From: Tissierellales bacterium
GTDB taxonomy: Bacteria > Bacillota > Clostridia > Tissierellales > Proteiniboraceae
Direction: 5' to 3'
DNA length: 32,000 bases
Assembly: GCA_041655135.1 (NCBI GenBank)
Contig: JBBAFY010000006.1
Coordinates: forward strand, 12,242-44,241
The notes beneath the pieces were generated by a model that made no database searches, was not told the DNA's origin, and worked only from the letters and a program-made list of their open reading frames with translations. Position 1 is the stretch's first letter. Each line of letters opens with the position of its first letter. Below, one piece after another: positions 2,947 to 14,496 of this stretch. The position numbers were made by a program, and so were the translations under genes.

Positions 2947-3145
2947 TCTGTCTTACCTACCTTTCATTTTATAGCTGTCTTATTTAATCTTATCTTAGTA
3001 TCAACTATTTCTTCATCAATCTACAAAAATCCTCTTATTTTTCTAATTATTGCTCAGATTTTCTTCTTGCAGCCACTCATTAAACCACGGGTACCGTCCC
3101 CATAGTTTGAATTTCTTGGTAGTACTTGACACCATCGCCTTAGAC

Positions 3146-6100
3146 TTAAAAAGTTAGGTTTTCGGCACCATGCTTCAGTTCCATTTCATAGATATTGCCA
3201 TCGCTCATTATGAGCAGGTTTCCATTGTCTAATACATTATGAAAACTTACTGGAATAGAAAGTATAAGGTTTTCTAGTGTCTTTATATCAATATATATAA
3301 TCCCATCCTGAGTGATTTCAGATATTTTATCGGCTGTAAACTTTTCTTTTAATTCTACTTTCATTTGAGTAATAGTCTGGTGTCCAAGCCTTTGTTCTAG
3401 AACTTCCTTTAGATACTTTGGTTTTATATAGGAAATAGATTTTCTAATGGAACTAGACACTCTGTTATATACGATGATTCCTCCATAGGTTAATATCCAA
3501 ATCTCATTTAAAAGCGCTAGAATTTCCATATCTTCTGCTACTAATTCATCAAGATTTAACCCATGCTCTCCTTCAAACAAACACTCTTTGCTCATCTCAT
3601 CTCTGATATGAAGTACATCCTCAAAAACCCATATTTTAAATGAATAATTAGTATCAAATATTTTAACAGGAGTCCTAGTTTTCAATAGATGTTCAGGATA
3701 ATATTTCTTCACAGTTATAGATTTTGTCAGAATATCTAACGTAAATTCTGACTCTGAAAACTTGTAGGTAATAAACTCCTGATTTTCTTCGATGGCTCTA
3801 CATTCATCTCTTAAAATACCTTCAATATTTACTTCATCAAAAATAGGACAATTCTGCTGGAAGTCCCAGGCATATAAATCGTCTTCTAATAGCCAGATAT
3901 ACACATATTTATAGCATCTTAGATAAGTTATGCGTTCCTTTTTCCTCTCTATGTGTTCGGGCATTTCAATTTTCATACAGTTTAACTTGCCATCAGATAA
4001 ATCCAGAACACAAATGCTCTTAGTGTTCATAAACCATATCTTTCCATCTCCATAACCTCTAATTGCTATGCCTTTGCTTCCATTATCCAACATGTTGTGA
4101 TTAGTCTCATAAATACATCTGTTTTTTTCATAATCCCACACGTGTATCTTATCCCTTAACACCCATATCTTATAATTTTTATATGTATACTCACCTATGA
4201 TGCCATTCTTACCTGCAGGTATAAAATCAGGATGTTCTTTGAACTCAATTTTAAAATTATCAATATGTAGCCTAATATCTCCCTCTGGTGTAAAAATACA
4301 AACTTCATTATCTAATATTTGATATATACGATTATGTCTGCTATGAAATCTTGTTAATCTAAAAGCCTGACCATTTGGTGGCAGAGTAATTTCCCTGCCT
4401 AAGTCTTCTTCAAACAAAGCTGTGGGGTTAAGAGTCATAGGTTGCTGCAATACCTTTATCCTGTTCTTATATACCTCGACAATTATATTATCTAAATATA
4501 TCGAAAATCTTTCCTCAAACTCGAATGTACTGCCTTTAGACGTATTTCTCAATGGCCATCCGAAAAAACCAACATTTTCTTCAGCACTATAAGGTTGAAA
4601 AATATCATTTTCTATGCATTCATGTTTTTGATAATTTTCATTTTTTGTGCGTATACCTTCCTCCCAGCTTCTCATTCCATATTTATCATATGATTCTGTT
4701 AAGCAAATAAATTTATTTCGGTCTTTCTCAAGGTTAGCTATTATCAATAAGTCATCATCAACTTTAAAATAATCTGAAGAATCTCTGCCACCAGTAGTAT
4801 AGCTACATGGAATAGGAAAGCTACATGAAAACTCTTCTCCCTTAAGATACTTTCCCCAAACTCTCATATTATGAAGATCATCATCTATATATATGATATT
4901 TTCATCAACTTCTACTCTTGACACTGCATAAAATCCCTTGGCCTGTGTATGAGAAAGAAGGGAAATCTCCAGTTTACTGCTTTCATTTTCCGTAATAACA
5001 ATATCCTTTGATATAGCTATTTTAGGAATAAAGTCATTGTAATTCAGCTTCCTATATATTTTCTCTTTTATGATTCCTTCTTCTTTGTCAATAATACTCC
5101 AGGAATTTTCAAATTCAAAAACCTGAACCATACCCATATCCTTGCAAGTGCTGTAATAAATCTCACAATCTAGACCATCAAACTCTATAGAGTTGACACA
5201 TTCCTCTGTAAGCATATTCCACATGTCAACACGAGGATACTTACTAGCCCCATCCCTATCCTCTAATTCAACATAAAGATAATTTCCACATATTTTTCTA
5301 CTGTTAAAGGATTCTTCTCTTCCTTTGTAATACTCTTTTATTATTCTGTAAGGCTTTGTCATTTTATGTGTAAGCTTATTATATACTAACAATAATCCTG
5401 CTCTATCACTGATGACCAGAAGCTCTTTAGTGCCTTCCATATGTAATCTTTTTAAGCCATGGGTGTTTTTAATAGTGCAGCCAGACTCATGGATAAGCTC
5501 CATAGTGTTTAAATCCCAAATTTTTAAAGCAGATGGAGCCATTGTAAGTAAATAGCCATCCTTATATGAGTAATAGTTAACACCATTCAACTCTTCTAGC
5601 TTTTTCCCAGACTTCTTATCCCAAAAAATTAGCTGTATATCAACATGCACTTCTTTCTTGGTTTTACCAATAAAGCTCCATTGGTCTTGTCTTTCTTCTT
5701 CACTAATATCCACCTCTTGGCTTAGTGCACTAACTGAAATAATGACATCCTTGTAGCATTCCATATAGAGAATATGATTCCTATGTCCTTTCAATATACA
5801 AAGAAGCTCACCATTGGTCATGTCGTATACTGTAATGTCGTTTTTATCATCTTTTTCTAAATAATAATCCCATCCTAGTGCAATTTTTTTATCTTCTTTT
5901 ACAGTAGTAAACTCCATTCCCCATTTTAGATCTTTTGCTTGCTTATTGACAGATTTGTTTTTCCTATGCATAATTTTATGGGATTCTATTTCTCCGAGTT
6001 CCATATCTATACGATACTTAATAAAGTCGTAATGGCTACCCACACTATAATTTAAGTAATTCCCTTCAAGTGAAAATCGCCCATCATAGTCATGATAATT

Positions 6101-8722
6101 ATTTTTAAACAATATTCTCTCTGACAGCCAAATCCTTTCCTTTAGGTGTATAGAAGGTTTCAAATCCCATATTTCTAAAATTGATACTTCTTCAGATCTG
6201 TTGATAAGTATATATAAGCTATCTTCTATTACCTGCCAATCATGGCAGATATCATATTCCATATATTCATCCTCAGGCTCATCAATAAGGATATTGCTAA
6301 CCTTATTTATATTTTCAGGTTTATGACAATACTCAGATAAAGGCTTTAGCCAAGGAAAGTTCGTTTGTCCCTCTAGGTCCTTTAACAAAGAACTGATTTG
6401 CTGGTTAGTAATCTTTCCTAGCCATAGATATAAAAAGGTGGGTAGCTCCAATACAGATATATCAATGGCATGCTTAGATCTTTCCAATGCATTCTGAAGT
6501 TGAACAATGGCTTCATTCTGCTCACTTATATAATTAAAATCCAGTAGTAGCTCATCAATTCCACAGATTCTAATTTTGTTATATAAAAAACTGTAATTTA
6601 AAAGAATCCTCTCTATTTCGTCGTCTTGACCACTTGCATGAAGATGATAAGTCAGCTCCCTATAGGCAGCTACAGTTTCGGCATTTATCCTATCCTCTTC
6701 ATTGAATTTTAGCTTGTTCCTGTATACCTTTGCTAGACAACTATGGAACTCTTTTTTCTGAGATTGGTATCTTTCCTGTGTTGCCAGCTTAAAACTTTCA
6801 TAAAAATAACTCAATTTCTTGCCATGGTATACAAGATAATCCCTCATCTGTCTGATATATTCGTACATCTTCTCTTTAATTGCTTCATTTTCTGGATCTA
6901 GACCTTTACTAAATCCAATCCCTGCTATGAGCTCCTTAGACTCTAATCCGTTCCTAGAATAAGCCATTAGTCCAAATAGACCCTTAACTATATCTGCATT
7001 ATAAACACCCTTCTCAATATAGTCTGCATCTTCCTCCATCCGTCTAAGTACTTTATTAAATGCACTCTTGCTTGTATCCCCAAAATCATATATCTCCTGT
7101 CTCAAATTATCAAATGATCCATAAATCCTAAGCTCAGATAATAAAATTTTAAGATATAAGGGGTTCTCTGTTGCATCAATTTTCAACAATTCATTTTTAT
7201 CCGTATCACTAAGCTTTTTCAAATAAGTAGCTAAGAACTCGTCAATCAATTGCTCTCTTATATCCAATGAAGAAAAACTATTGAGTTCCATTAGATTGTT
7301 GAATCTGTTTTGAAAACGTAGGAATCCTTTTTCATTATCTAGGGCTTTGCAGCTTATGACCATTTTACTGTCTGCACTAAGTTCATTAGGAATCCAAGCC
7401 ATACTGTCTAGGGTTTCCTCTAGCTCATTTACAGAATCAATCACAATAGTAATCTTGCTTTTTAGACACTTCATTATCTTTTTCCAGAATCTAATTAATT
7501 GCTTTGGCTGATTAATGAGACCAGTTATTGACATATCCATTTCATTTTCTATTTTGTCAGTATCAAAGCAATTACCAGCATGTAATTCTTCTGCAATACT
7601 TGATAACAAATCCTGAGTGCGAATGCTTTTATCCCCAACTCCACAAAAACGGTAGCAGATTCTTTCTCCACGCTCACTCAACAATTTTATAATATTAGCC
7701 ATTAGGACTGTCTTTCCAACACCTGCATTAGCATATACTAAAAGTGGTTGTTTAGATTCCCCACCCACATATTCTAATAACTGTCCTACCTCTTCATTAC
7801 GCCCAACAAACTGATGGAGATTTCTGTGAAGGAATTCTTCCTGCTGGACTAATTCATCATCTCCGCTCATATCCATTTTTTCGCTACAATTCTCAGGAAA
7901 CTCCTTTTCAATTGCCTTAGTCAAACCTTCAAATATATAATCCTTAAGGTCTGTGAAGGCATCATCTTTAATTCTGAAATTAGTTAGCCTTCCCTGACAC
8001 AGGGAGTCTCCAAGCTTGTCCGATTTTAGTTCTGGAGTCCTCTGATTCTTATCAAAATCACAGCAATACTCATTCCATTCATACATTGATTTATGAACTT
8101 GCTCCATTGTACCTAGCTTTAATTGGTTCTTAAATGACTCCAATATCTGATCTTCTTTTTCTGGAGACTGAGCTAAAGCATTAGTATAAATATTTAATAA
8201 TGGACCATAGGAATTAGTCATATCATCCAAATAACTAGAGTTTCTAAATAGAAAAAGAGCATTTCTCACTCTTTTGTGTTTTGTTACTTTACCTGTTTTG
8301 CTATCTTTTATTTCAAATGGGTTTATCAGTGCATGCATTATTTCAAGCTCTGTTACAGAACTTTTTCCTATGGATCCGTCTATATCTACAATCTTCTCAT
8401 AGGTAGAAAGAGCAACGTCCTCCTTTTCTGGCACCCAACCCCTTCTCTGGCCTAGGAAGCAAAGAAAGAAAGGTCTACATTTATCAATATTATCTAGACA
8501 TATTTCAACTACCTTATTGTTTAAGCTGTCCGATTCTTCACTTGTGATTCCCCATCTTAAATCAATATCAACGAGCCGTAGCTTTCTTTCCATGCACCAT
8601 TCTGAAAGTTTAGGAAAAACGCTTTTTATCAAATAATCACGTTCTGCATGCATATCATTAAATGTACTGCTTATAAAAACATAAACATTTTGCCATTTAA
8701 GTGTATTTTTGTGCTCTGCCAT
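3146..8722 (-). CDS. Giant STAND NTPase with DUF4062-like N-terminal domain, NACHT-type P-loop NTPase, helical region and a long degenerate WD40/beta-propeller region
   Basis: GGAGG RBS at 8732-8736, 9 nt before ATG 8722. DUF4062-type N-terminus at aa 13-95: VYVFISSTFNDMHAERDYL...VDIDLRWGI...CRPFFLCFLGQRRGW. Walker A is LLVYANAGVGKTVL (aa 327-340, nt about 7703-7744). The NACHT-like Walker B is ITIVIDSVNELEE (aa 423-435). The helical part contains NPLYLKILLSELRIYGS. From about aa 800 to 1858 there are repeated blade-like units, for example ITVYDMTNGELLCILKGHRNHILYMECYKDVIISVS, KIWDLN, IHVWDYE and LYAWDF. Confidence 0.85.
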   Translation of the reverse strand: MAEHKNTLKWQNVYVFISSTFNDMHAERDYLIKSVFPKLSEWCMERKLRLVDIDLRWGITSEESDSLNNKVVEICLDNIDKCRPFFLCFLGQRRGWVPEKEDVALSTYEKIVDIDGSIGKSSVTELEIMHALINPFEIKDSKTGKVTKHKRVRNALFLFRNSSYLDDMTNSYGPLLNIYTNALAQSPEKEDQILESFKNQLKLGTMEQVHKSMYEWNEYCCDFDKNQRTPELKSDKLGDSLCQGRLTNFRIKDDAFTDLKDYIFEGLTKAIEKEFPENCSEKMDMSGDDELVQQEEFLHRNLHQFVGRNEEVGQLLEYVGGESKQPLLVYANAGVGKTVLMANIIKLLSERGERICYRFCGVGDKSIRTQDLLSSIAEELHAGNCFDTDKIENEMDMSITGLINQPKQLIRFWKKIMKCLKSKITIVIDSVNELEETLDSMAWIPNELSADSKMVISCKALDNEKGFLRFQNRFNNLMELNSFSSLDIREQLIDEFLATYLKKLSDTDKNELLKIDATENPLYLKILLSELRIYGSFDNLRQEIYDFGDTSKSAFNKVLRRMEEDADYIEKGVYNADIVKGLFGLMAYSRNGLESKELIAGIGFSKGLDPENEAIKEKMYEYIRQMRDYLVYHGKKLSYFYESFKLATQERYQSQKKEFHSCLAKVYRNKLKFNEEDRINAETVAAYRELTYHLHASGQDDEIERILLNYSFLYNKIRICGIDELLLDFNYISEQNEAIVQLQNALERSKHAIDISVLELPTFLYLWLGKITNQQISSLLKDLEGQTNFPWLKPLSEYCHKPENINKVSNILIDEPEDEYMEYDICHDWQVIEDSLYILINRSEEVSILEIWDLKPSIHLKERIWLSERILFKNNYHDYDGRFSLEGNYLNYSVGSHYDFIKYRIDMELGEIESHKIMHRKNKSVNKQAKDLKWGMEFTTVKEDKKIALGWDYYLEKDDKNDITVYDMTNGELLCILKGHRNHILYMECYKDVIISVSALSQEVDISEEERQDQWSFIGKTKKEVHVDIQLIFWDKKSGKKLEELNGVNYYSYKDGYLLTMAPSALKIWDLNTMELIHESGCTIKNTHGLKRLHMEGTKELLVISDRAGLLLVYNKLTHKMTKPYRIIKEYYKGREESFNSRKICGNYLYVELEDRDGASKYPRVDMWNMLTEECVNSIEFDGLDCEIYYSTCKDMGMVQVFEFENSWSIIDKEEGIIKEKIYRKLNYNDFIPKIAISKDIVITENESSKLEISLLSHTQAKGFYAVSRVEVDENIIYIDDDLHNMRVWGKYLKGEEFSCSFPIPCSYTTGGRDSSDYFKVDDDLLIIANLEKDRNKFICLTESYDKYGMRSWEEGIRTKNENYQKHECIENDIFQPYSAEENVGFFGWPLRNTSKGSTFEFEERFSIYLDNIIVEVYKNRIKVLQQPMTLNPTALFEEDLGREITLPPNGQAFRLTRFHSRHNRIYQILDNEVCIFTPEGDIRLHIDNFKIEFKEHPDFIPAGKNGIIGEYTYKNYKIWVLRDKIHVWDYEKNRCIYETNHNMLDNGSKGIAIRGYGDGKIWFMNTKSICVLDLSDGKLNCMKIEMPEHIERKKERITYLRCYKYVYIWLLEDDLYAWDFQQNCPIFDEVNIEGILRDECRAIEENQEFITYKFSESEFTLDILTKSITVKKYYPEHLLKTRTPVKIFDTNYSFKIWVFEDVLHIRDEMSKECLFEGEHGLNLDELVAEDMEILALLNEIWILTYGGIIVYNRVSSSIRKSISYIKPKYLKEVLEQRLGHQTITQMKVELKEKFTADKISEITQDGIIYIDIKTLENLILSIPVSFHNVLDNGNLLIMSDGNIYEMELKHGAENLTF
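3151..3175. repeat. Degenerate copy of dyad repeat family A overlapping the 3' end of the STAND gene
   Basis: aagttaggttttcggcaccatgctt compares with aagattggtgcctggcaccatgctt at 1901-1925. It encodes the last residues (HGAENLTF) of the 1858-aa ORF. Confidence 0.6.
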
Positions 8723-8742
8723 TAGAAGCTGCCTCCTTTGAA

Positions 8743-10449
8743 CTATTTGTACACCTTTAATCCAATGGTATTTAATAATGAAATAATGTTCCTCACTGTA
8801 TCCCTATCAAGTTCCTTAACATCCTCTGTAAGCTCCTCATATGGTATAAGGTGCGGACTAATCTTATTATCTATATCCTTTGCCTCACCATAGGTCCATC
8901 CATTTTTGCTCCTTTCATCTACCCATGAATCATGCTCAATCTTGGATAAATACTCTATCTGAGAAGGTTCCAATTCCTTAATCTCAGTTCCTCCCTCATT
9001 CTCCTCAGATGCACTATATCCTAGATACCTCAGTTTATCAGTTATAGTTCTTGCCTGACGTATATTAGAATACTTCAAGTCTTCAGGTAGGCTTTCCCAA
9101 GTAGGGTGCTTTAGTTCAATATCTGGATTTCTTTCAATTTGGTTTTTGTTATAATCAGCATGAATTGACTTAGCAATTTTTTCAATATTTATAAGTAATG
9201 GTCTTGGAGCTATCTTGACATCTTGTTCTTGGATTGTTTCTATATATAAATCAGAACCTGCCAAGCATTCCACCTTAATACCATCTTTAAATAGAGCCTT
9301 AATATCGATAACACTGTTAAATAGAGCTTCCTTCTTTTCAGCAAAACCTCTTTCCATGGCTCCCTTTGGTGCTAAATATGTAATTGCCATCTGAGTCTCT
9401 GTCATATTAAGTCTAGACCCATCAGCAAGAACCCTCTTTTTGTCTTCAATTCCATAGGCTTCACGATTCCATTCCTGTAATTCATCACATAATATCAATA
9501 GATAAGCATAGGGGTGCTTCTCTGGAGTTAAGGCTCCTAGTGAAAATGGCTCCTTCATCAATACATTTTTATAATAATTATGCAGCAAAATCGCTCCTGC
9601 AGCATCTACTATCTCGTTATATAAAACATCGGAACTAATCCCACTCATTTGAAGCATATGACCATACCATTTCAATAATATAATTGAACTATAGAATCCA
9701 TGGTCTACAAAACCAAACTTTTGCATATTGCTTAAGAAGTCACTTAAGTACTTCTTAGTAGTCTCTAAATCTGTCCCAAGCCTGCTTTGTATATTATAGC
9801 TCAATAAGTCTAATGCTTTATTAGGGTCAATATGATTTAAATCTGCTATTGAATTATCATCTATAGAAATAGTAGGCACCCTATTTAACACCTCAAAGTC
9901 TTTAAATGCTAAATAAGGATCTGCACTCTTATTTTCACCATCAACATCACTTACTAACTTGATAAATTTTTTGATTTGATTGTTGGTAATTTCCACAGGA
10001 TATCCTACATCATGACAAAGAGAGGCAATTCCCCATTTAAATAGAAACTCCTTCCTAGATGATTCATATTTTTCTCTACTTTTACTATTCTTCTCATGAT
10101 CCTCTTCTATAATAGTCCTAAGGTTTTTATTTTGGGCATAGATAGCTAAACCTAAAACAAATACATTAACTGAGTGGACATAATGATCTCTCTGCTTGTC
10201 AATTAGAGTAGCAGCGTTTTCTTCATAGCTTTTCAAGACATCTAATAGGTCAATAAAGTTCTTTTTCCCCTGCAACAAAATTTTATAACTATCAAAAAAA
10301 GTTACATACACATCAAATGCAGTCTCTTTATTCTCATCCTTAAGAAAATTAGCTATTGCCTCTTTCAAATAAATCTCATAATCATTGGCTTTTCTTGTTT
10401 CCTTCCTTAACTTAAAGAAATCAATTACATATTCTTTTTTTAAACCCAT
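8743..10449 (-). CDS. HD-domain phosphohydrolase fused to a C-terminal RyR (ryanodine-receptor repeat, PF02026-type) module
   Basis: GGAGG RBS at 10456-10460, directly abutting the upstream stop codon. HD signature residues are RDHYVHSVNV (H89, H92), CHDVGYP (H146-D147, nt 10009-10014), DHGFYS, LLHN and LCDELQ. The C-terminus, LSKIEHDSWVDERSKNGWTYGEAKDIDNKISPHLIPYEELTEDVKELDRDTVRNI, is a strong match to my recollection of the RyR-domain consensus. Confidence 0.8.
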   Translation of the reverse strand: MGLKKEYVIDFFKLRKETRKANDYEIYLKEAIANFLKDENKETAFDVYVTFFDSYKILLQGKKNFIDLLDVLKSYEENAATLIDKQRDHYVHSVNVFVLGLAIYAQNKNLRTIIEEDHEKNSKSREKYESSRKEFLFKWGIASLCHDVGYPVEITNNQIKKFIKLVSDVDGENKSADPYLAFKDFEVLNRVPTISIDDNSIADLNHIDPNKALDLLSYNIQSRLGTDLETTKKYLSDFLSNMQKFGFVDHGFYSSIILLKWYGHMLQMSGISSDVLYNEIVDAAGAILLHNYYKNVLMKEPFSLGALTPEKHPYAYLLILCDELQEWNREAYGIEDKKRVLADGSRLNMTETQMAITYLAPKGAMERGFAEKKEALFNSVIDIKALFKDGIKVECLAGSDLYIETIQEQDVKIAPRPLLINIEKIAKSIHADYNKNQIERNPDIELKHPTWESLPEDLKYSNIRQARTITDKLRYLGYSASEENEGGTEIKELEPSQIEYLSKIEHDSWVDERSKNGWTYGEAKDIDNKISPHLIPYEELTEDVKELDRDTVRNIISLLNTIGLKVYK

Positions 10450-10460
10450 TTTTATCCTCC

Positions 10461-12305
10461 TTAATTAATGTTTTTAAGTAACTGAGCTACCACTTCATAA
10501 TCATATTCTTGAAATGCAGTCTTGCTTTTTTGACAAGGTAGTTCAGCTAATTCATCCCAGCTAACTAGACATAAATGCTTCTTTTCATTCTCTCGTTTTG
10601 CTATATTGTTGCTTTTCTCTTGGTCTGTAAGCTCCTCTGCCAATAAAGGAGTCCATCCACGTGCATAATGAAATCCACACCATCTATAGTGCTCATACAT
10701 AGCTAGTTTCCAATATATATCCTCACCAGTGTTATTATTGTTAATTAAGCCTAGTTTGTTTACAGTATCTCTAGCAGATGCACGATTAGAGTCCTTAGTA
10801 AAAACGCTTAATTCTCTCCACTGATTCACTTTTTTGTCCTTTACATTCTTCTTGTAGTTTTCATGAACTTGTTTACCTAGCTCATCAGCCTTTCTTAAAA
10901 TCAAGTTATCATATGTATATATATCCTTAAACATATTTATGGCATAGAGCATATGACTTTGTGAAGTCAGTACCTCTTGGTCATATTCTTTATCTCTAAC
11001 GAAGAATATAATTTCAGGCTTGTCCTTTTTTAATTCTCTATTCTGTATGAAACGGTCTAGCTTAAGTGCAGTTTTGACATTTTGATTGCTATCACCTGTT
11101 ACTATGAAAAATTGATGAATCTGAGCTAGCTTGTCTCCAATTACTTGGTAAAACTCCTCGGTTCCAATAGCAGTATCACAAAACTCTATGGAGTTTTTAT
11201 GGGCAAAATAAGGAACATCCGTTAGGAAATCCTGCTTTAGCCTTTTCATGTTTTCGTCTATAACTAATGCTCTATAAGGTGCCTCTGAAAAATCTTCCCT
11301 TAAAAATCTTGAGTTTTCATAGGTCGCTAAGAGTAGCTCTTGACCTAAGTCACCAAAGCCAATTATACAAGCTGAATATGGTTCCTTTACTAGATTAAAT
11401 GAATCCTTGTCATAGAACTCATTGTTTTTCTCTAAAACTACAAGAGGTGAGTGTTTTTCTCTTAACTTATCTACTACTAATTGTTCTTCTGATACTAAAT
11501 ATGTATCTAACTTTATATCCTTCAAGTTTTGAAAGCGAAGCTGTTCATTGTCGCAAAAAACAGTAATGTTAATATTGCTAAATTCCGTGCCATGTGAATT
11601 GTCTTCAATATTTTTTGCAATACTATTCAGTTTTCCTAAATATTCAATATTCTCGTTTTTGTCCTCTAGTAATAAAACAATATGGTATTGGTGAGATGGT
11701 TTCCCATTGTTAATGGGATTATCAGCTAGAAAATCATCCAATTTTTTTACTCTTACATTCCCAAAATTCTTAGCTTTATGGTCCACTTCTTCCCTTGTAT
11801 AATATGTTATTACTTTATCCTTAAAATCAGCCTTACTGGATATATCGTCAATCAATGCATGGGCACTGACAATGTCCCCAACAATCAATATCTTGTTAGG
11901 CTGTTTATTATATATGTACCAAAGCTTAAATTTGTGTATCTTGTCAGAAAGAAGAAAAACACTAAGAGTACCAGCGGTATTTAATGATGAAATAAGCAGG
12001 ATTGTCCATATTTGTATTTCAATCAGTTGCTCATCGCCAAGAATATGATATACTTCTCTAAACCTTTGAAAGCTTAAATCAAAAGCAACTCCCTTAAGTG
12101 CTAAATATAGAGCATTAAATATGATCAAAACCATTGCTTTTAAGTCCATATTTGTCTGCATTAGATACCCTAGCACTAAAAAAATACCAAAAACAAATAT
12201 GTAATTGTAGGACCAAAGAACAAGCCTTTCAATATTTTTATCCCTTGCTTTTCTAGAGGACCATATAACAATACACAAGATAGAAAAATAAATAGCTAAT
12301 ATCAT
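10461..12305 (-). CDS. Membrane protein with 4 N-terminal TM helices, two Rossmann-like (TrkA-N-like) domains and a C-terminal RyR-type module
   Basis: Hydrophobic helices lie within aa 1-120. The Rossmann-like segments are KILIVGDIVSAHALIDD (glycine motif degenerate) and ACIIGFGDLGQELL (GxGxxG). The C-terminus has QVHENYKK...WRELSVFTKDSNRASARDTVNKLG followed by YEHYRWCGFHYARGWTP...HLCLVSWDELAE, parallel to the C-terminus of the adjacent HD protein. An AAGGTGA RBS precedes ATG 12305. Confidence 0.75.
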   Translation of the reverse strand: MILAIYFSILCIVIWSSRKARDKNIERLVLWSYNYIFVFGIFLVLGYLMQTNMDLKAMVLIIFNALYLALKGVAFDLSFQRFREVYHILGDEQLIEIQIWTILLISSLNTAGTLSVFLLSDKIHKFKLWYIYNKQPNKILIVGDIVSAHALIDDISSKADFKDKVITYYTREEVDHKAKNFGNVRVKKLDDFLADNPINNGKPSHQYHIVLLLEDKNENIEYLGKLNSIAKNIEDNSHGTEFSNINITVFCDNEQLRFQNLKDIKLDTYLVSEEQLVVDKLREKHSPLVVLEKNNEFYDKDSFNLVKEPYSACIIGFGDLGQELLLATYENSRFLREDFSEAPYRALVIDENMKRLKQDFLTDVPYFAHKNSIEFCDTAIGTEEFYQVIGDKLAQIHQFFIVTGDSNQNVKTALKLDRFIQNRELKKDKPEIIFFVRDKEYDQEVLTSQSHMLYAINMFKDIYTYDNLILRKADELGKQVHENYKKNVKDKKVNQWRELSVFTKDSNRASARDTVNKLGLINNNNTGEDIYWKLAMYEHYRWCGFHYARGWTPLLAEELTDQEKSNNIAKRENEKKHLCLVSWDELAELPCQKSKTAFQEYDYEVVAQLLKNIN

Positions 12306-12367
12306 GTAGTAATCACCTTAAGTAGTATATTCAGGTTTTAGGATACCTGTAAACCTATAATATACTA

Positions 12368-12396
12368 ATTATATCATAGACAAGTATTTCTCAATA
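12368..12396 (-). promoter_or_regulatory. Candidate sigma-A promoter (extended -10) of the three-gene operon
   Basis: The minus strand reads TATTGA - 17 nt - TGaTATAAT. The -10 is at 12368-12373, the TG at 12375-12376 and the -35 at 12391-12396, about 60 nt upstream of ATG 12305. Confidence 0.45.
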
Positions 12397-12400
12397 TAGA

Positions 12401-12493
12401 AAATTTGGTGCCAGAAAGTTTGGTGCCAGGCACCAGGGAAAAGGAAAGTTTGGTGGAAAATTTGGTGCCGAAAATTTGGTGCCTGGCACCAAA
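12401..12493. repeat. Dyad repeat family A cluster: five TTTGGTGCC-type half-sites, two of which are the left arms of full dyads (a 19-bp perfect palindrome at 12475-12493)
   Basis: Half-sites are at 12404-12412, 12419-12427, 12449-12456 (degenerate), 12461-12469 and 12475-12483. The 12419 half-site is part of the full dyad GGTGCC-A-GGCACC at 12422-12434. The 12475 half-site is part of TTTGGTGCC-T-GGCACCAAA at 12475-12493. Confidence 0.85.
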
Positions 12494-12530: not shown

Positions 12531-14423
12531 TCACTCTATATCCAAGCCTGCGCCAACCTGGCAGGCTCCATTAAAACCCTCTAGTGTACTTTCTGTACTG
12601 TTTATATGATATGTAGGTACTATTTGTTGAACATAGTCCCTAAGACTGCTGCAATCGCTAGTATCTATTAATTCCTTTAATGTCTCTAAAGATTTTATCA
12701 TCAGCTTATAGTCTGTAAATACTGGCTTCCCAATAAATATCTTATCGTGTCCAGTAGAGCTCATACCCTCTTCATCAAGTAATAACTCTTCATAGAGCTT
12801 TTCGCCCTGTCTCAGCCCAGTAAATTCAATATGAACATCTACATCAGGCTCAAAGCCCGAAAGTCTAATTAGATCCCTTGCTAAATCTATTATCTTCACT
12901 GGTTCTCCCATATCAAGAACGAATATTTCTCCACCCTTTGCCATTGCCCCTGCCTGTATCACTAGCTGAGCAGCTTCAGGTATAGTCATGAAATATCTAA
13001 TAATATCTGGATGAGTGACTGTAACAGGTCCACCCTCCATTATTTGCTTTTTAAATAGTGGGATAACACTTCCATTGCTGCCTAGTACATTGCCGAATCT
13101 CACAGCTACATACTCAGTTTCGCTTTTTTTATCTATTGACTGAATAATCATCTCGCAAATCCTCTTAGAAGCACCCATAATATTTGTTGGATTTACGGCC
13201 TTGTCCGTAGATATCATAACAAATCGCTTTACCCCATATGTATCAGCAGCTTGTGCTAGATTTAAAGTACCAAACACATTATTCTTGATAGCCTCCTTAG
13301 GGTTATCCTCCATCAAAGGCACATGTTTATGAGCTGCAGCATGAAATATAACATCAGGTCTATTGTCTTCCATTATTTCATCAATTCTTTTTTTATCTCT
13401 TATAGAGGCAATAAAAACTTTTAGATTTAAATCCTTATATTTTCTCTTTAATTCAATCTGCAAATCGTAAACATTGTTCTCATATATGTCAAGAATACAG
13501 AGTTTATTAGGCTCAAACTTGGCAATTTGTCTGCAAAGCTCCGAACCAATAGAGCCTCCACCACCAGTAACTAAAACTCGTTTCCCCTTTAGATATTCGC
13601 TTATATCTTCAAGATAAAGATGTACCTCATCCCTTCCTAAAAGGTCCTCTATCTCCACATCTCTTATTTCTTTTATACTAACATTGCCATCTATAAGCTC
13701 ATACATTCCTGGTAATATTTTTAGTTTACACTTTGTTTTCTTGCATTCGCTTACAATATCTCTTATCTCACTTTTACTAGCAGAAGGTATGGCAATTATT
13801 ATTTCATCAATATCCATTTTATTTGCTATGGTTACTATATCTACTCTTTGTCCCATAATAGGCACTCCGTTTATTCTTTGACCTTTCTTTAATGAATCAT
13901 CATCTATTATGGCTACAGGTCTACTGTTAAGCTGTGTATGGTTTTTAAGCTCCCTAATAACCATGGCCCCTGCATCTCCAGCCCCTATTATCATTATATG
14001 CTTAAAGCTATCTCCTTTACTAAAGCCGTTTCCCTTAACTCTTCTAAGAGTCCTATAGCTAAACCTGACCCCACCTATTAATAGCATGTCCAATATAGTA
14101 GTGATAGCATATACACCTCTAGGAAGAAAAGTCTGTCTTACAAGTAAAAAGCTAATGACTCCTGCATTTGCTACAATAGAGGCTACTACAACATTTAACA
14201 GTTCATCAACACTAGCATATCTCCATAGACTTCTATATAATTTAAAGTAATAAAATACTACTATCTTTAAAAAAGTAATTATTAGTGCATTGTCTAGATA
14301 TACTTTCAAATAGTTTAAATCTATCTTTCCATCAAACCTCAAATATAACGCTAAGTAATATGCTAGGTTAATTAAAACAATATCTAAAATAACCAAGAAG
14401 AATACTCTAGCTTTTTTTTGCAT
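12531..14423 (-). CDS. capD: Membrane-anchored polysaccharide biosynthesis protein CapD/PglF/WbpM family (UDP-sugar 4,6-dehydratase)
   Basis: N-terminal TM helices are followed by two Rossmann segments (IMIIGAGDAGA and VLVTGGGGSIGSEL) and the catalytic region MISTDKAVNPTNIMGASKR. I moved the start to ATG 14423 (MQKKARVFF) because GGGAG sits 8 nt upstream of it. The track start at 14447 lacks an RBS. Confidence 0.85.
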   Translation of the reverse strand: MQKKARVFFLVILDIVLINLAYYLALYLRFDGKIDLNYLKVYLDNALIITFLKIVVFYYFKLYRSLWRYASVDELLNVVVASIVANAGVISFLLVRQTFLPRGVYAITTILDMLLIGGVRFSYRTLRRVKGNGFSKGDSFKHIMIIGAGDAGAMVIRELKNHTQLNSRPVAIIDDDSLKKGQRINGVPIMGQRVDIVTIANKMDIDEIIIAIPSASKSEIRDIVSECKKTKCKLKILPGMYELIDGNVSIKEIRDVEIEDLLGRDEVHLYLEDISEYLKGKRVLVTGGGGSIGSELCRQIAKFEPNKLCILDIYENNVYDLQIELKRKYKDLNLKVFIASIRDKKRIDEIMEDNRPDVIFHAAAHKHVPLMEDNPKEAIKNNVFGTLNLAQAADTYGVKRFVMISTDKAVNPTNIMGASKRICEMIIQSIDKKSETEYVAVRFGNVLGSNGSVIPLFKKQIMEGGPVTVTHPDIIRYFMTIPEAAQLVIQAGAMAKGGEIFVLDMGEPVKIIDLARDLIRLSGFEPDVDVHIEFTGLRQGEKLYEELLLDEEGMSSTGHDKIFIGKPVFTDYKLMIKSLETLKELIDTSDCSSLRDYVQQIVPTYHINSTESTLEGFNGACQVGAGLDIE

Positions 14424-14496
14424 AACAAAAACTCCCTTCAAAAGCACCTTCTAGTCATATGGCTAGAAGGTCAATAGTTAACAAGCAAGATATATA

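Follow-up and report, generated by a model that had tools for sequence, protein, structure and literature searches.

A stretch of 32,000 nucleotides from a Tissierellales bacterium (GenBank assembly GCA_041655135.1, contig JBBAFY010000006.1, positions 12,242 to 44,241 of the forward strand), referred to here as the window, has a G+C content of 33% and carries three large minus-strand genes, g1, g2 and g3, that had been predicted from the sequence alone to form an operon and a candidate anti-phage system. The prediction was followed up by profile searches, structure models and comparison of gene neighbourhoods. The g3 product joins a TIR-like DUF4062 domain to a NACHT-type NTPase, the g1 and g2 products both end in a module of the ryanodine receptor Repeat12 type (RyR), and relatives of g2 in other genomes mostly lie beside TIR or DUF4062 genes. 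Together, these features suggest a Thoeris-like signalling operon.

The three genes and their domains

The genes, their domains and the junctions between them lie as follows, with residue numbers of the respective protein in brackets:

10461..12305, minus strand: g1, encoding a 614-residue membrane protein with a transmembrane (TM) region, tandem RCK domains and an RyR module; proposed signal-gated, channel-like effector
11946..12305, minus strand: TM region of g1 (1-120), about four hydrophobic helices, with invariant G72, A74, F75, D76, G90, E96, Q98 and W100
10896..11903, minus strand: tandem RCK/TrkA 'gating ring' of g1 (135-470), two Rossmann-like domains, the second with GFGDLG
10464..10892, minus strand: RyR-type module of g1 (472-614), with H539, W542, K576-H577 and D602
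10450..10460, minus strand: junction of g1 and g2, 11 nt, TAA-GGAGGATAAAA-ATG, with GGAGG inside
8743..10449, minus strand: g2, encoding a 568-residue cytoplasmic protein with an HD-motif domain, a small beta domain and a tandem RyR Repeat12; proposed signal-activated hydrolase effector
9445..10449, minus strand: all-alpha HD-motif domain of g2 (1-335), with invariant H89, H92, H146-D147, D249-H250, H290 and D322
8746..9204, minus strand: tandem RyR Repeat12-like domain of g2 (416-568), with H506, W509 and D548
8723..8742, minus strand: junction of g2 and g3, 20 nt, TAG-TTCAAAGGAGGCAGCTTCTA-ATG, with AGGAGG inside
3146..8722, minus strand: g3, encoding an 1858-residue STAND protein with DUF4062, a NACHT-type NTPase, an APAF1-like helical domain and a repeat tail; proposed sensor and signal generator
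8318..8695, minus strand: DUF4062 TIR-like NADase domain of g3 (10-135), from Pfam, PDB entry 11gz and alignment
7043..7825, minus strand: NACHT/NPHP3_N-type P-loop NTPase of g3 (300-560)
6524..6754, minus strand: APAF1_C-like helical domain of g3 (657-733; Pfam E 7.5e-6, 26.4 bits against a cut-off of 22.8)
3149..6325, minus strand: divergent, partly WD40-like repeat tail of g3 (800-1858); proposed ligand sensor

The three open reading frames (ORFs), the 11- and 20-nt gaps between them and the GGAGG in each gap lie exactly at the coordinates first given for them, and a scan of the window found no terminator-like site on the minus strand within the block. In g3, Pfam DUF4062 matched residues 15-101 (E 1.4e-11, 44.9 bits against a cut-off of 24.7), and the N-terminal 135 residues matched the TIR-like domain of human TEP1 (PDB 11gz; E 1e-19). 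An alignment of g3, TEP1 and 14 bacterial homologs showed F(I/V)SSTFxDMxxER, DLRWG and SVTxxE to be invariant, and the glutamate of SVTxxE, which is E127 in g3, would by its position be equivalent to E97 of KpSwz and E1008 of TEP1. The Pfam TIR models (PF13676 or PF08937) gave no match in g3, DUF4062 being a distinct TIR-like family. NPHP3_N was matched at residues 323-450 (E 1.1e-11, 45.7 bits against a cut-off of 24.8), with weaker Pfam matches to ATPase_2, AAA_16, NACHT and NB-ARC, and both the Walker A (GVGKT, K337) and Walker B (IVIDSVNE, D429 and E433) motifs are intact. The original prediction was accurate for these two motifs and for the DUF4062 N-terminus; its NACHT assignment is confirmed by NPHP3_N as far as the type of module is concerned, but the Pfam NACHT model itself reached 18.9 bits, under its cut-off of 26.7.

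The C-terminal tail of g3 had been described as about 1,000 residues of WD40 blades, and this extent was not recovered: a blade hidden Markov model (HMM) gave two significant blades in g3, whereas six to nine were found in the homologs of L015, L027, L052, L053 and L056 (loci are designated by L numbers throughout). About eight WD-type strand motifs are present in the tail, residues ~957-1075 matched the designed WD40 propeller Tako8 (E 6e-5), and Pfam WD40 gave no match. Homologs of g3 could be aligned over the first ~795 residues only, at 37-42% identity, and the tail was unalignable. Between the window and L091, identity was 81% for g2, 72% for g1 and 42% for g3, the last figure applying to the first 795 residues because the tail could not be aligned (the L091 span compared with g3 at 3146-8722 is 2987-7519). 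The proposed sensor gene g3 has apparently either been exchanged or diverged much faster than g1 and g2, and divergence that is fast relative to its partners would be a signature of an immune receptor, in favour of a role in defence.

More than 1100 homologs of g2 were found, and relatives occur in 244 GTDB species, one genome having been scanned per species. The C-terminal domain of g2 matched Pfam RyR (PF02026; E 9.8e-16, 58.2 bits against a cut-off of 27.4) and RyR chains in the PDB (phmmer; down to E 3e-25), and Foldseek matched the AlphaFold2 (AF2) model of g2, which has a mean predicted local distance difference test (pLDDT) score of 79, to the tandem Repeat12 of human RyR3 over ~190 columns (E 4e-6), in structures bound to ATP, ADP or AMP-PCP. 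The residues H506, W509 and D548 show the same H-x2-W arrangement and 42-residue spacing from H to D as H75, W78 and D117 of the phage protein RyDEP. In g1, the corresponding pocket residues are H539, W542, H577 and D602. The N-terminal part is all-alpha across residues 1-332 of the model, and in the alignment columns the invariant H89 and H92 stand in DHYVHSVNVF, H146-D147 in CHDVGYP and D322 in LCDELQEW; we take this H..HD..H..H..D pattern to be that of HD metal-dependent phosphohydrolases. The HD signature that had been assigned to g2 is therefore upheld as an invariant motif, but at the profile level support was sub-threshold: Pfam HD (PF01966) gave no match to g2 itself at E<=10, and five of 27 relatives matched below threshold (best E 0.015). 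A profile of the N-terminal domain found no relative among PDB sequences, and the Foldseek list for the full g2 model was taken up by RyR matches.

Ten close homologs of g1 were found, the same ten being returned by an alignment-based, word-indexed search, and an exhaustive HMM search placed 1744 representative clusters (E<=1e-3) in the wider family with TM, RCK and RyR regions. Kyte-Doolittle analysis gave hydrophobic windows at residues 1-20, 27-53, 52-79 and 101-120, or about four helices, in agreement with the AF2 model and with the predicted four-TM protein. No selectivity filter of the TVGYG type is present in g1; a conserved LG(D/N)E in an interhelical loop is only suggestive of a pore, and lies in a TM region modelled at pLDDT <50. 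The AF2 model of g1 has a mean pLDDT of 66 and is mostly at 80-93 over the tandem RCK region, the top Foldseek matches being the TrkA gating ring 4j9v (E 9e-10), the GsuK channel, CASTOR and the BK/Slo rings. Pfam TrkA_N gave no match to g1 itself, and a distant family member in L020 matched both TrkA_N (3e-18, 66.5 bits) and RyR (1.3e-15, 57.9 bits). The earlier label of a Rossmann protein is thus correct for two Rossmann-like domains, but, as modelled, residues 135-470 are a tandem-RCK, TrkA-like arrangement rather than a generic Rossmann fold.

The C-terminal module of g1, taken alone, is under the Pfam RyR threshold (E 0.72, 10.6 bits). It was aligned with the g2 family by hhalign (94%, E 1.2e-7), and BLASTP matched the g1 C-terminus to an RyR domain of B. 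thetaiotaomicron (E 1e-5), with shared HxxW, GW and KKHxCLVx[WY]DEL. An RyR module common to both C-termini, as had been suggested, is therefore found by Pfam in g2 and by hhalign and BLASTP in g1, although g1 on its own fails Pfam. Beyond RyR, scans with PADLOC, NCBIfam and Pfam gave no named-system match for g1 or g2.

Recurrence, partner genes and surroundings

The three genes were expected to co-occur in other genomes, and the triad was found in five independent metagenomic loci, at least four of them besides the window. Two gene orders are seen, g1-g2-g3 in L091 and g3-g2-g1 in L001, L010 and L095/L096, and the linkage therefore outlasts rearrangement. Relatives of g2 range over Clostridia, Chloroflexota, Actinomycetota and others, and this distribution, patchy across phyla, is that of a family outside the core genome of the clade.

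Neighbours were counted in 80 loci fetched from the 244 GTDB species, with iterated TIR, DUF4062 and NACHT HMMs run on all stop-to-stop ORFs. A TIR or DUF4062 gene lay <=3 kb from the g2 relative in 52 of the 80 loci (65%): TIR in 41, DUF4062(+NACHT) in 10 and both in one. The partner was on the same strand and <=200 nt away, or fused, in 32 of the 80. The density of TIR/DUF4062 genes was 5.4 per 10 kb within 500 bp of the g2 relative versus 0.10 at 6-10 kb, a local enrichment of ~50-fold, and Pfam TIR_2 was confirmed in sampled neighbours. TIR is fused to the g2 relative in three proteins (P0018, P0020 and P0035), L002 and L006 contain two-gene operons of a TIR gene and a g2-like gene, and TIR/DUF4062 genes beside g2 relatives carry LRR, TPR, NHL or WD40 sensor repeats. 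In the window, g3 is the only gene that bears a domain of the TIR/DUF4062 type.

When 90 g2 relatives were placed in a neighbour-joining tree, those partnered with DUF4062 occupied at least six separate positions among those partnered with TIR; L037, for example, is at a distance of 0.14 from L059 and L062. This scatter indicates that the partner types were exchanged repeatedly, and TIR and DUF4062 generators appear to be interchangeable and to have been swapped again and again along the g2 tree. At L092 (1404-13119), a 59%-identical g2 relative stands with two TIR proteins, one of which bears NHL, fn3 and TSP3 repeats, and with a TPR protein, and a DUF4062-NACHT partner is absent; partner exchange therefore extends even to the clade nearest the window.

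The third operon slot is occupied by a g1-like gene in 10 of the 80 loci and by a DUF4231/SLATT-like gene (~550 residues) in 16. The ~550-residue proteins (L065 11634-13286, L022 11786-13513, L023 11844-13436 and 13 more) have a GVTGHRDL-type N-terminus, C-terminal TM helices and a weak DUF4231 match, and look like SLOG/SLATT-type membrane effectors in the slot of g1. At L058 (586-3129), an 847-residue ORF combines a xylose-isomerase-like TIM barrel (AP_endonuc_2, E 7e-28) with a g2-like body and RyR, and the barrel may be a further output domain on the g2 scaffold.

Genes for g1 and g2 are rare on plasmids. A TIR protein adjoins a g1-like protein on the Butyrivibrio plasmid pNP243, and the Arcobacter plasmid CP146529.1 (L100, 4946-8669) encodes a 324-residue NAD-binding protein, a 166-residue RyR protein and a 728-residue DUF4062 protein in a row, flanked by genes for a type I restriction-modification (R-M) subunit, an integrase, a recombinase and a transposase. 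Judged by its domains, L100 is a split version of the RyR/DUF4062 theme in Campylobacterota. Among 2.9 M viral contigs, the g2 family is all but missing, and an origin from phages or prophages was rejected, the search having returned one weak partial match.

Beside the triad in L001 (1-4642) and L010 (1-2948), and beside a solitary g1 homolog in L009 (9612-16318), there is a divergently oriented gene cluster encoding an AAA+ ATPase of 578-580 residues, a protein of 518-520 residues, a protein of 204-215 residues, a second AAA ATPase and DUF2201. This cluster may be an additional linked system.

In the window, the triad is surrounded by housekeeping genes (capsule, flagellar rod, MreB, SpoIID and MurA genes). 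The capD gene that precedes g1 (12531-14447; Polysacc_synt_2 in Pfam, E 5e-127) was said to carry its own terminator, and a hairpin followed by a run of seven U is indeed present at its 3' end, but the hairpin z-scores are weak. Similarly, the promoter proposed for the operon can be read in the sequence and is a plausible extended -10 candidate, but not one beyond chance, as its spacer is short and promoter-like hexamers are not enriched (42 observed versus 51.8 expected from shuffles); an automatic promoter scan with spacers of 16-18 nt omits it, and the other candidate is at 12353-12324. A statistically supported promoter or terminator was rejected on these grounds. The sites that flank the block are:

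12368..12394, minus strand: promoter-like site 5' of g1, read by eye as TTGAGA (12394-12389), a 15-nt spacer and the extended -10 TGaTATAAT (12376-12368)
171-183, 286-298, 1358-1370, 1396-1408, 1907-1919, 12422-12434 and 12478-12490: copies of GGTGCCWGGCACC

The 13-nt palindrome GGTGCCWGGCACC occurs in seven copies versus none expected, all intergenic, and flanks the 1.9-12.5 kb block on both sides. Four tandem copies of GGCACCAAAYTTTC lie at 12399-12483, immediately 5' of the promoter region of g1. These repeats could be repetitive extragenic palindromic (REP)-like elements, or else scars of recombination or insertion. Downstream of g3, the minus strand encodes a predicted lipoprotein of 301 residues (2041-2946) and a 103-residue protein without a family match (1547-1858); because neither is conserved beside the triad elsewhere, both ORFs probably lie outside the triad system.

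A proposed signalling pathway and its alternatives

The original prediction of a sensor with two effector or adaptor proteins in one system is supported by co-occurrence and by the profile matches. Characterised DUF4062 domains are TIR-like NADases that convert NAD+ to ADP-ribose (ADPR) and nicotinamide, in Swarozyc with E97 and in TEP1 with E1008 (bioRxiv 10.64898/2026.05.01.722283). Phage RyR-domain proteins bind (at nM level) or cleave 2'cADPR, 3'cADPR and cyclic ADPR (cADPR), and thereby block Thoeris, and their pocket of His, Trp, His and Asp is conserved across PF02026 (PMC13232231; 10.64898/2026.06.04.730250). With a TIR-like NADase in g3 and a domain that binds ADPR-type signals in its partners, g1 and g2 are probable signal-activated effectors rather than generic adaptors. 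Taken together, these data lead us to favour, with moderate confidence, the reading that the triad is one operon encoding a Thoeris-like anti-phage signalling system that acts by abortive infection, in which the RyR modules of g1 and g2 would sense an NAD-derived signal made by DUF4062.

The domains, the catalytic and pocket residues and the linkage statistics suggest the following course. By analogy with its family, the propeller-like tail of g3 would recognise a ligand derived from the invader, and the NACHT-type ATPase would be freed to oligomerise. Oligomerised g3 would bring its DUF4062 domains together, upon which NAD+ would be cleaved to ADPR or to a cyclised or otherwise modified derivative, an activity that we infer from the domain and its catalytic glutamate. 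As the gene linkage and the ligands of phage RyR proteins suggest, this messenger would then be bound by the C-terminal Repeat12-type domains of g1 and g2, which would sense rather than degrade it. Binding would open or assemble g1, a four-TM protein with a tandem-RCK gating ring, and depolarise the membrane; in g2, it would also activate the HD-type domain, a putative metal-dependent phosphohydrolase or nuclease. The joint outcome would be that the infected cell is stopped ahead of phage release.

A broader proposal, which is put forward tentatively and to which we would give somewhat less than an even chance, is that RyR Repeat12 is an ancient cellular receptor for NAD+-derived messengers of TIR-fold enzymes and that the operon runs from an NLR through a messenger to a channel and a hydrolase. 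If so, DUF4062, so far known only as an NAD+-depleting executioner, would be a signal synthase under STAND control, and the operon would parallel, in bacteria, the TNL pathway by which plants signal to Ca2+ channels. Furthermore, animal ryanodine receptors might plausibly have derived their Repeat12 module and their sensitivity to cADPR from such receptors, and the RyR sponges of phages would be explained as copies of host receptors.

Several observations weigh against the proposed signalling system. The His/Asp catalytic dyad of RyDEP is kept in g1 and g2, whose RyR modules could therefore degrade the signal rather than sense it, and the characterised DUF4062 enzymes yield plain ADPR and deplete NAD+, with no signalling (bioRxiv 10.64898/2026.05.01.722283). 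No model of PADLOC-DB v2 matches g1, g2 or g3, the sole match being mad8 (E 0.002). The AF2 model is of low confidence in the TM and RyR regions of g1, with pLDDT <50 in the former; and the N-terminus of g2 is likely but unproven as an HD domain, an assignment kept at the motif level because the Pfam HD support is weak and the PDB profile search was empty. Moreover, 17 of the 80 g2 relatives are without a TIR or DUF4062 gene at <=3 kb despite adequate flanks, although L065, one of these 17, has a TIR gene just past 3 kb; a further 11 of the 80 loci are on contigs too short for a partner to be judged. In L007, L008 and L018, a 621-residue g2 relative with an N-terminal extension (10001-11866 in L007) lies by itself, flanked by NifU and CarD amid conserved housekeeping genes; TIR and DUF4062 genes are absent for 10 kb around it. 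Lastly, the variable, defence-island setting that had been supposed for the window was rejected, since the neighbours of the triad are the housekeeping genes listed above.

Some of these points would fit a different form of immunity, in which g3 suffices by itself as an NLR-like abortive-infection protein and kills by depleting NAD+, as Swarozyc and TIR-Avs/bNACHT proteins do, and in which g1 and g2 are accessory modulators and not effectors. The modulators would bind or hydrolyse an ADPR-type product, so as to turn the signal off, detoxify the product, set a threshold or guard against the sponges of phages. NAD+ depletion with release of ADPR by the characterised DUF4062 proteins and the conserved glycosidase dyad of RyDEP are what this account would lead one to expect, and an HD phosphohydrolase is plausibly able to cleave the pyrophosphate of ADPR-like molecules. 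However, the two-gene operons of L002 and L006 contain no candidate effector other than the g2-like protein, and their short TIR proteins resemble signal makers of the ThsB type; g1 is built like a gated membrane effector, as judged by the fold search; and the SLATT/DUF4231-like membrane proteins found in the same slot in 16 loci are typical of effector exchange. We judge NAD+ depletion by g3 alone to be unlikely as the function of the operon.

It is distinctly improbable, in our assessment, that the triad is a physiological sensor with no part in immunity, in which RyR reads adenine nucleotides (ATP/ADP) or NAD metabolites and tunes ion flux through g1 and nucleotide turnover through g2, and in which g3 is a STAND regulator of stress, development or programmed death. 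The ATP, ADP or AMP-PCP carried by the matching human RyR3 Repeat12 structures would suit such a sensor, and so would the housekeeping genes around the triad, the solitary g2 relatives in the conserved NifU/CarD neighbourhood and the zero count of PADLOC matches. It does not account for the repeated coupling of the g2 family to TIR/DUF4062 genes with LRR, TPR, NHL or WD40 repeats, for the patchy distribution across phyla, for the fast evolution of the proposed sensor tail of g3, or for the Arcobacter plasmid instance among R-M and mobile-element genes. Finally, the alternative raised in the original prediction was that a bNACHT-type system of one gene (g3) and a separate RyR system of two genes (g1 and g2) adjoin each other by chance. 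We consider this very unlikely, for although single-gene bNACHT and Avs systems are common and L009 has a g1 homolog without g2 or g3, the triad is kept in five loci despite changed gene order, its gaps are of 11 and 20 nt, and g1 and g2 alone would lack the TIR/DUF4062 partner that 52 of the 80 g2 relatives have nearby.

Significance and comparison with known systems

If the signalling reading is true, RyR would join SLOG, Macro, CARF, SAVED and others as readers of bacterial nucleotide second messengers, and a tandem-RCK membrane protein and an HD-motif enzyme would be added as two new effector types. DUF4062, which is common to human TEP1, NWD1 and NPHP3, would then act as a signal generator below an NLR-type switch, beyond its role as an NAD+ drain. 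The connection of cADPR-type signals to the Repeat12 domain has long been debated, and a small, soluble bacterial RyR domain would allow the relation between cADPR and Repeat12 in the animal ryanodine receptor to be tested directly. The RyR sponges and glycosidases that were reported from phages in 2026 would also gain a host-side counterpart, and the g2 family, present in at least 244 species genomes, would give a functional reading to a sizeable unannotated class of TIR-linked systems. Altogether, it would tie together DUF4062 as an NADase, RyR as a binder of cADPR and the diversity of Thoeris.

The statement that no named system has this combination of domains was borne out, as no PADLOC model matches and no paper describing it was found in the literature searched. 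The closest comparison is with Thoeris (types I-XI), in which an NAD+-cleaving TIR-fold domain likewise adjoins effectors with a small-molecule-binding domain, and in which the outputs are membrane-disrupting or hydrolytic; moreover, relatives of g2 and g1 sit directly beside canonical TIR genes. In contrast to Thoeris, the generator is a DUF4062 domain inside the 1858-residue STAND protein rather than a Pfam TIR domain in a short ThsB protein, and the putative receptor of g1 and g2 is RyR Repeat12, versus SLOG, Macro and others that have been described. A systematic Thoeris survey names 29 putative effector classes and gives validation for types V-XI, including type X with an 'ion channel' effector (ThsK), and multi-effector and multi-TIR Thoeris islands are known (10.64898/2025.12.03.692087). 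The HD-motif domain and the TM region with tandem RCK lie outside the validated types given there, and RyR, PF02026 and DUF4062 are absent from the text and supplements of that survey, Figure 1C and part of Table S1 aside (10.64898/2025.12.03.692087). Within this coverage of the survey, the g1-g2-g3 operon is kin to TIR-fold nucleotide-signalling immunity and is a member of no named type. Each of g1 and g2 has an RyR module and an output domain and could be a Thoeris-type effector, the binding of a signal being argued from phage RyR proteins only. The plasmid relatives of the TIR cluster of type X Thoeris, followed as a lead to g1-like effectors, were all type II systems with a Macro domain.

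The g3 protein shares its catalytic domain and the conserved glutamate with Swarozyc and Evangelion, which are activated by assembly on a phage cue. Swarozyc is a single-protein defence system that binds the phage portal, its DUF4062 domain being activated by assembly there (2026 DUF4062 preprints). Unlike these single proteins, which have other auxiliary domains and deplete NAD+, g3 carries its DUF4062 domain on the same chain as a NACHT module and a repeat tail, and is linked with two genes that encode RyR proteins. Operons with 'diverse enzymes' are noted in the DUF4062 papers, which leave RyR unmentioned. In human NWD1, NWD2, TEP1 and NPHP3, the domain order is DUF4062, NACHT, helical domain and WD40 (2026 DUF4062 preprints), and g3 has the same order, with an APAF1-like helical domain and a partly WD40-like tail, as these and the bacterial 'TEP1-like' proteins. 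It differs from the TEP1 group in being prokaryotic, in lacking TROVE and in its operon linkage to RyR-domain proteins. Similarly, g3 resembles bNACHT and Avs in its tripartite build, in which a putative enzymatic domain at the N-terminus and a STAND NTPase are followed by a fast-diverging repeat region as the candidate sensor; however, those are usually single-gene systems with an N-terminal killer domain, whereas g3 has conserved partner genes in its operon, and the PADLOC models for bNACHT and Avs gave no match to it.

The two papers on phage RyR proteins do not discuss host RyR effectors (PMC13232231; 10.64898/2026.06.04.730250). With the anti-Thoeris proteins RyDEP and RyR Tad, g1 and g2 share a fold of the Repeat12 type and the pocket residues His, Trp and Asp; unlike these small phage sponges and glycosidases, which turn immunity off, they are large, of cellular origin and equipped with output domains, and the g2 family is essentially absent from viral contigs. 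Plant TNL receptors signal through EDS1 to helper-NLR Ca2+ channels, and the proposed pathway would resemble theirs in its NLR-type receptor, its NAD-derived messenger made by a TIR fold and the opening of an ion channel, as an analogy only. Likewise by analogy only, g1 as proposed here would recall the animal cADPR/ryanodine receptor, in which a Repeat12 domain is part of a ligand-gated channel.

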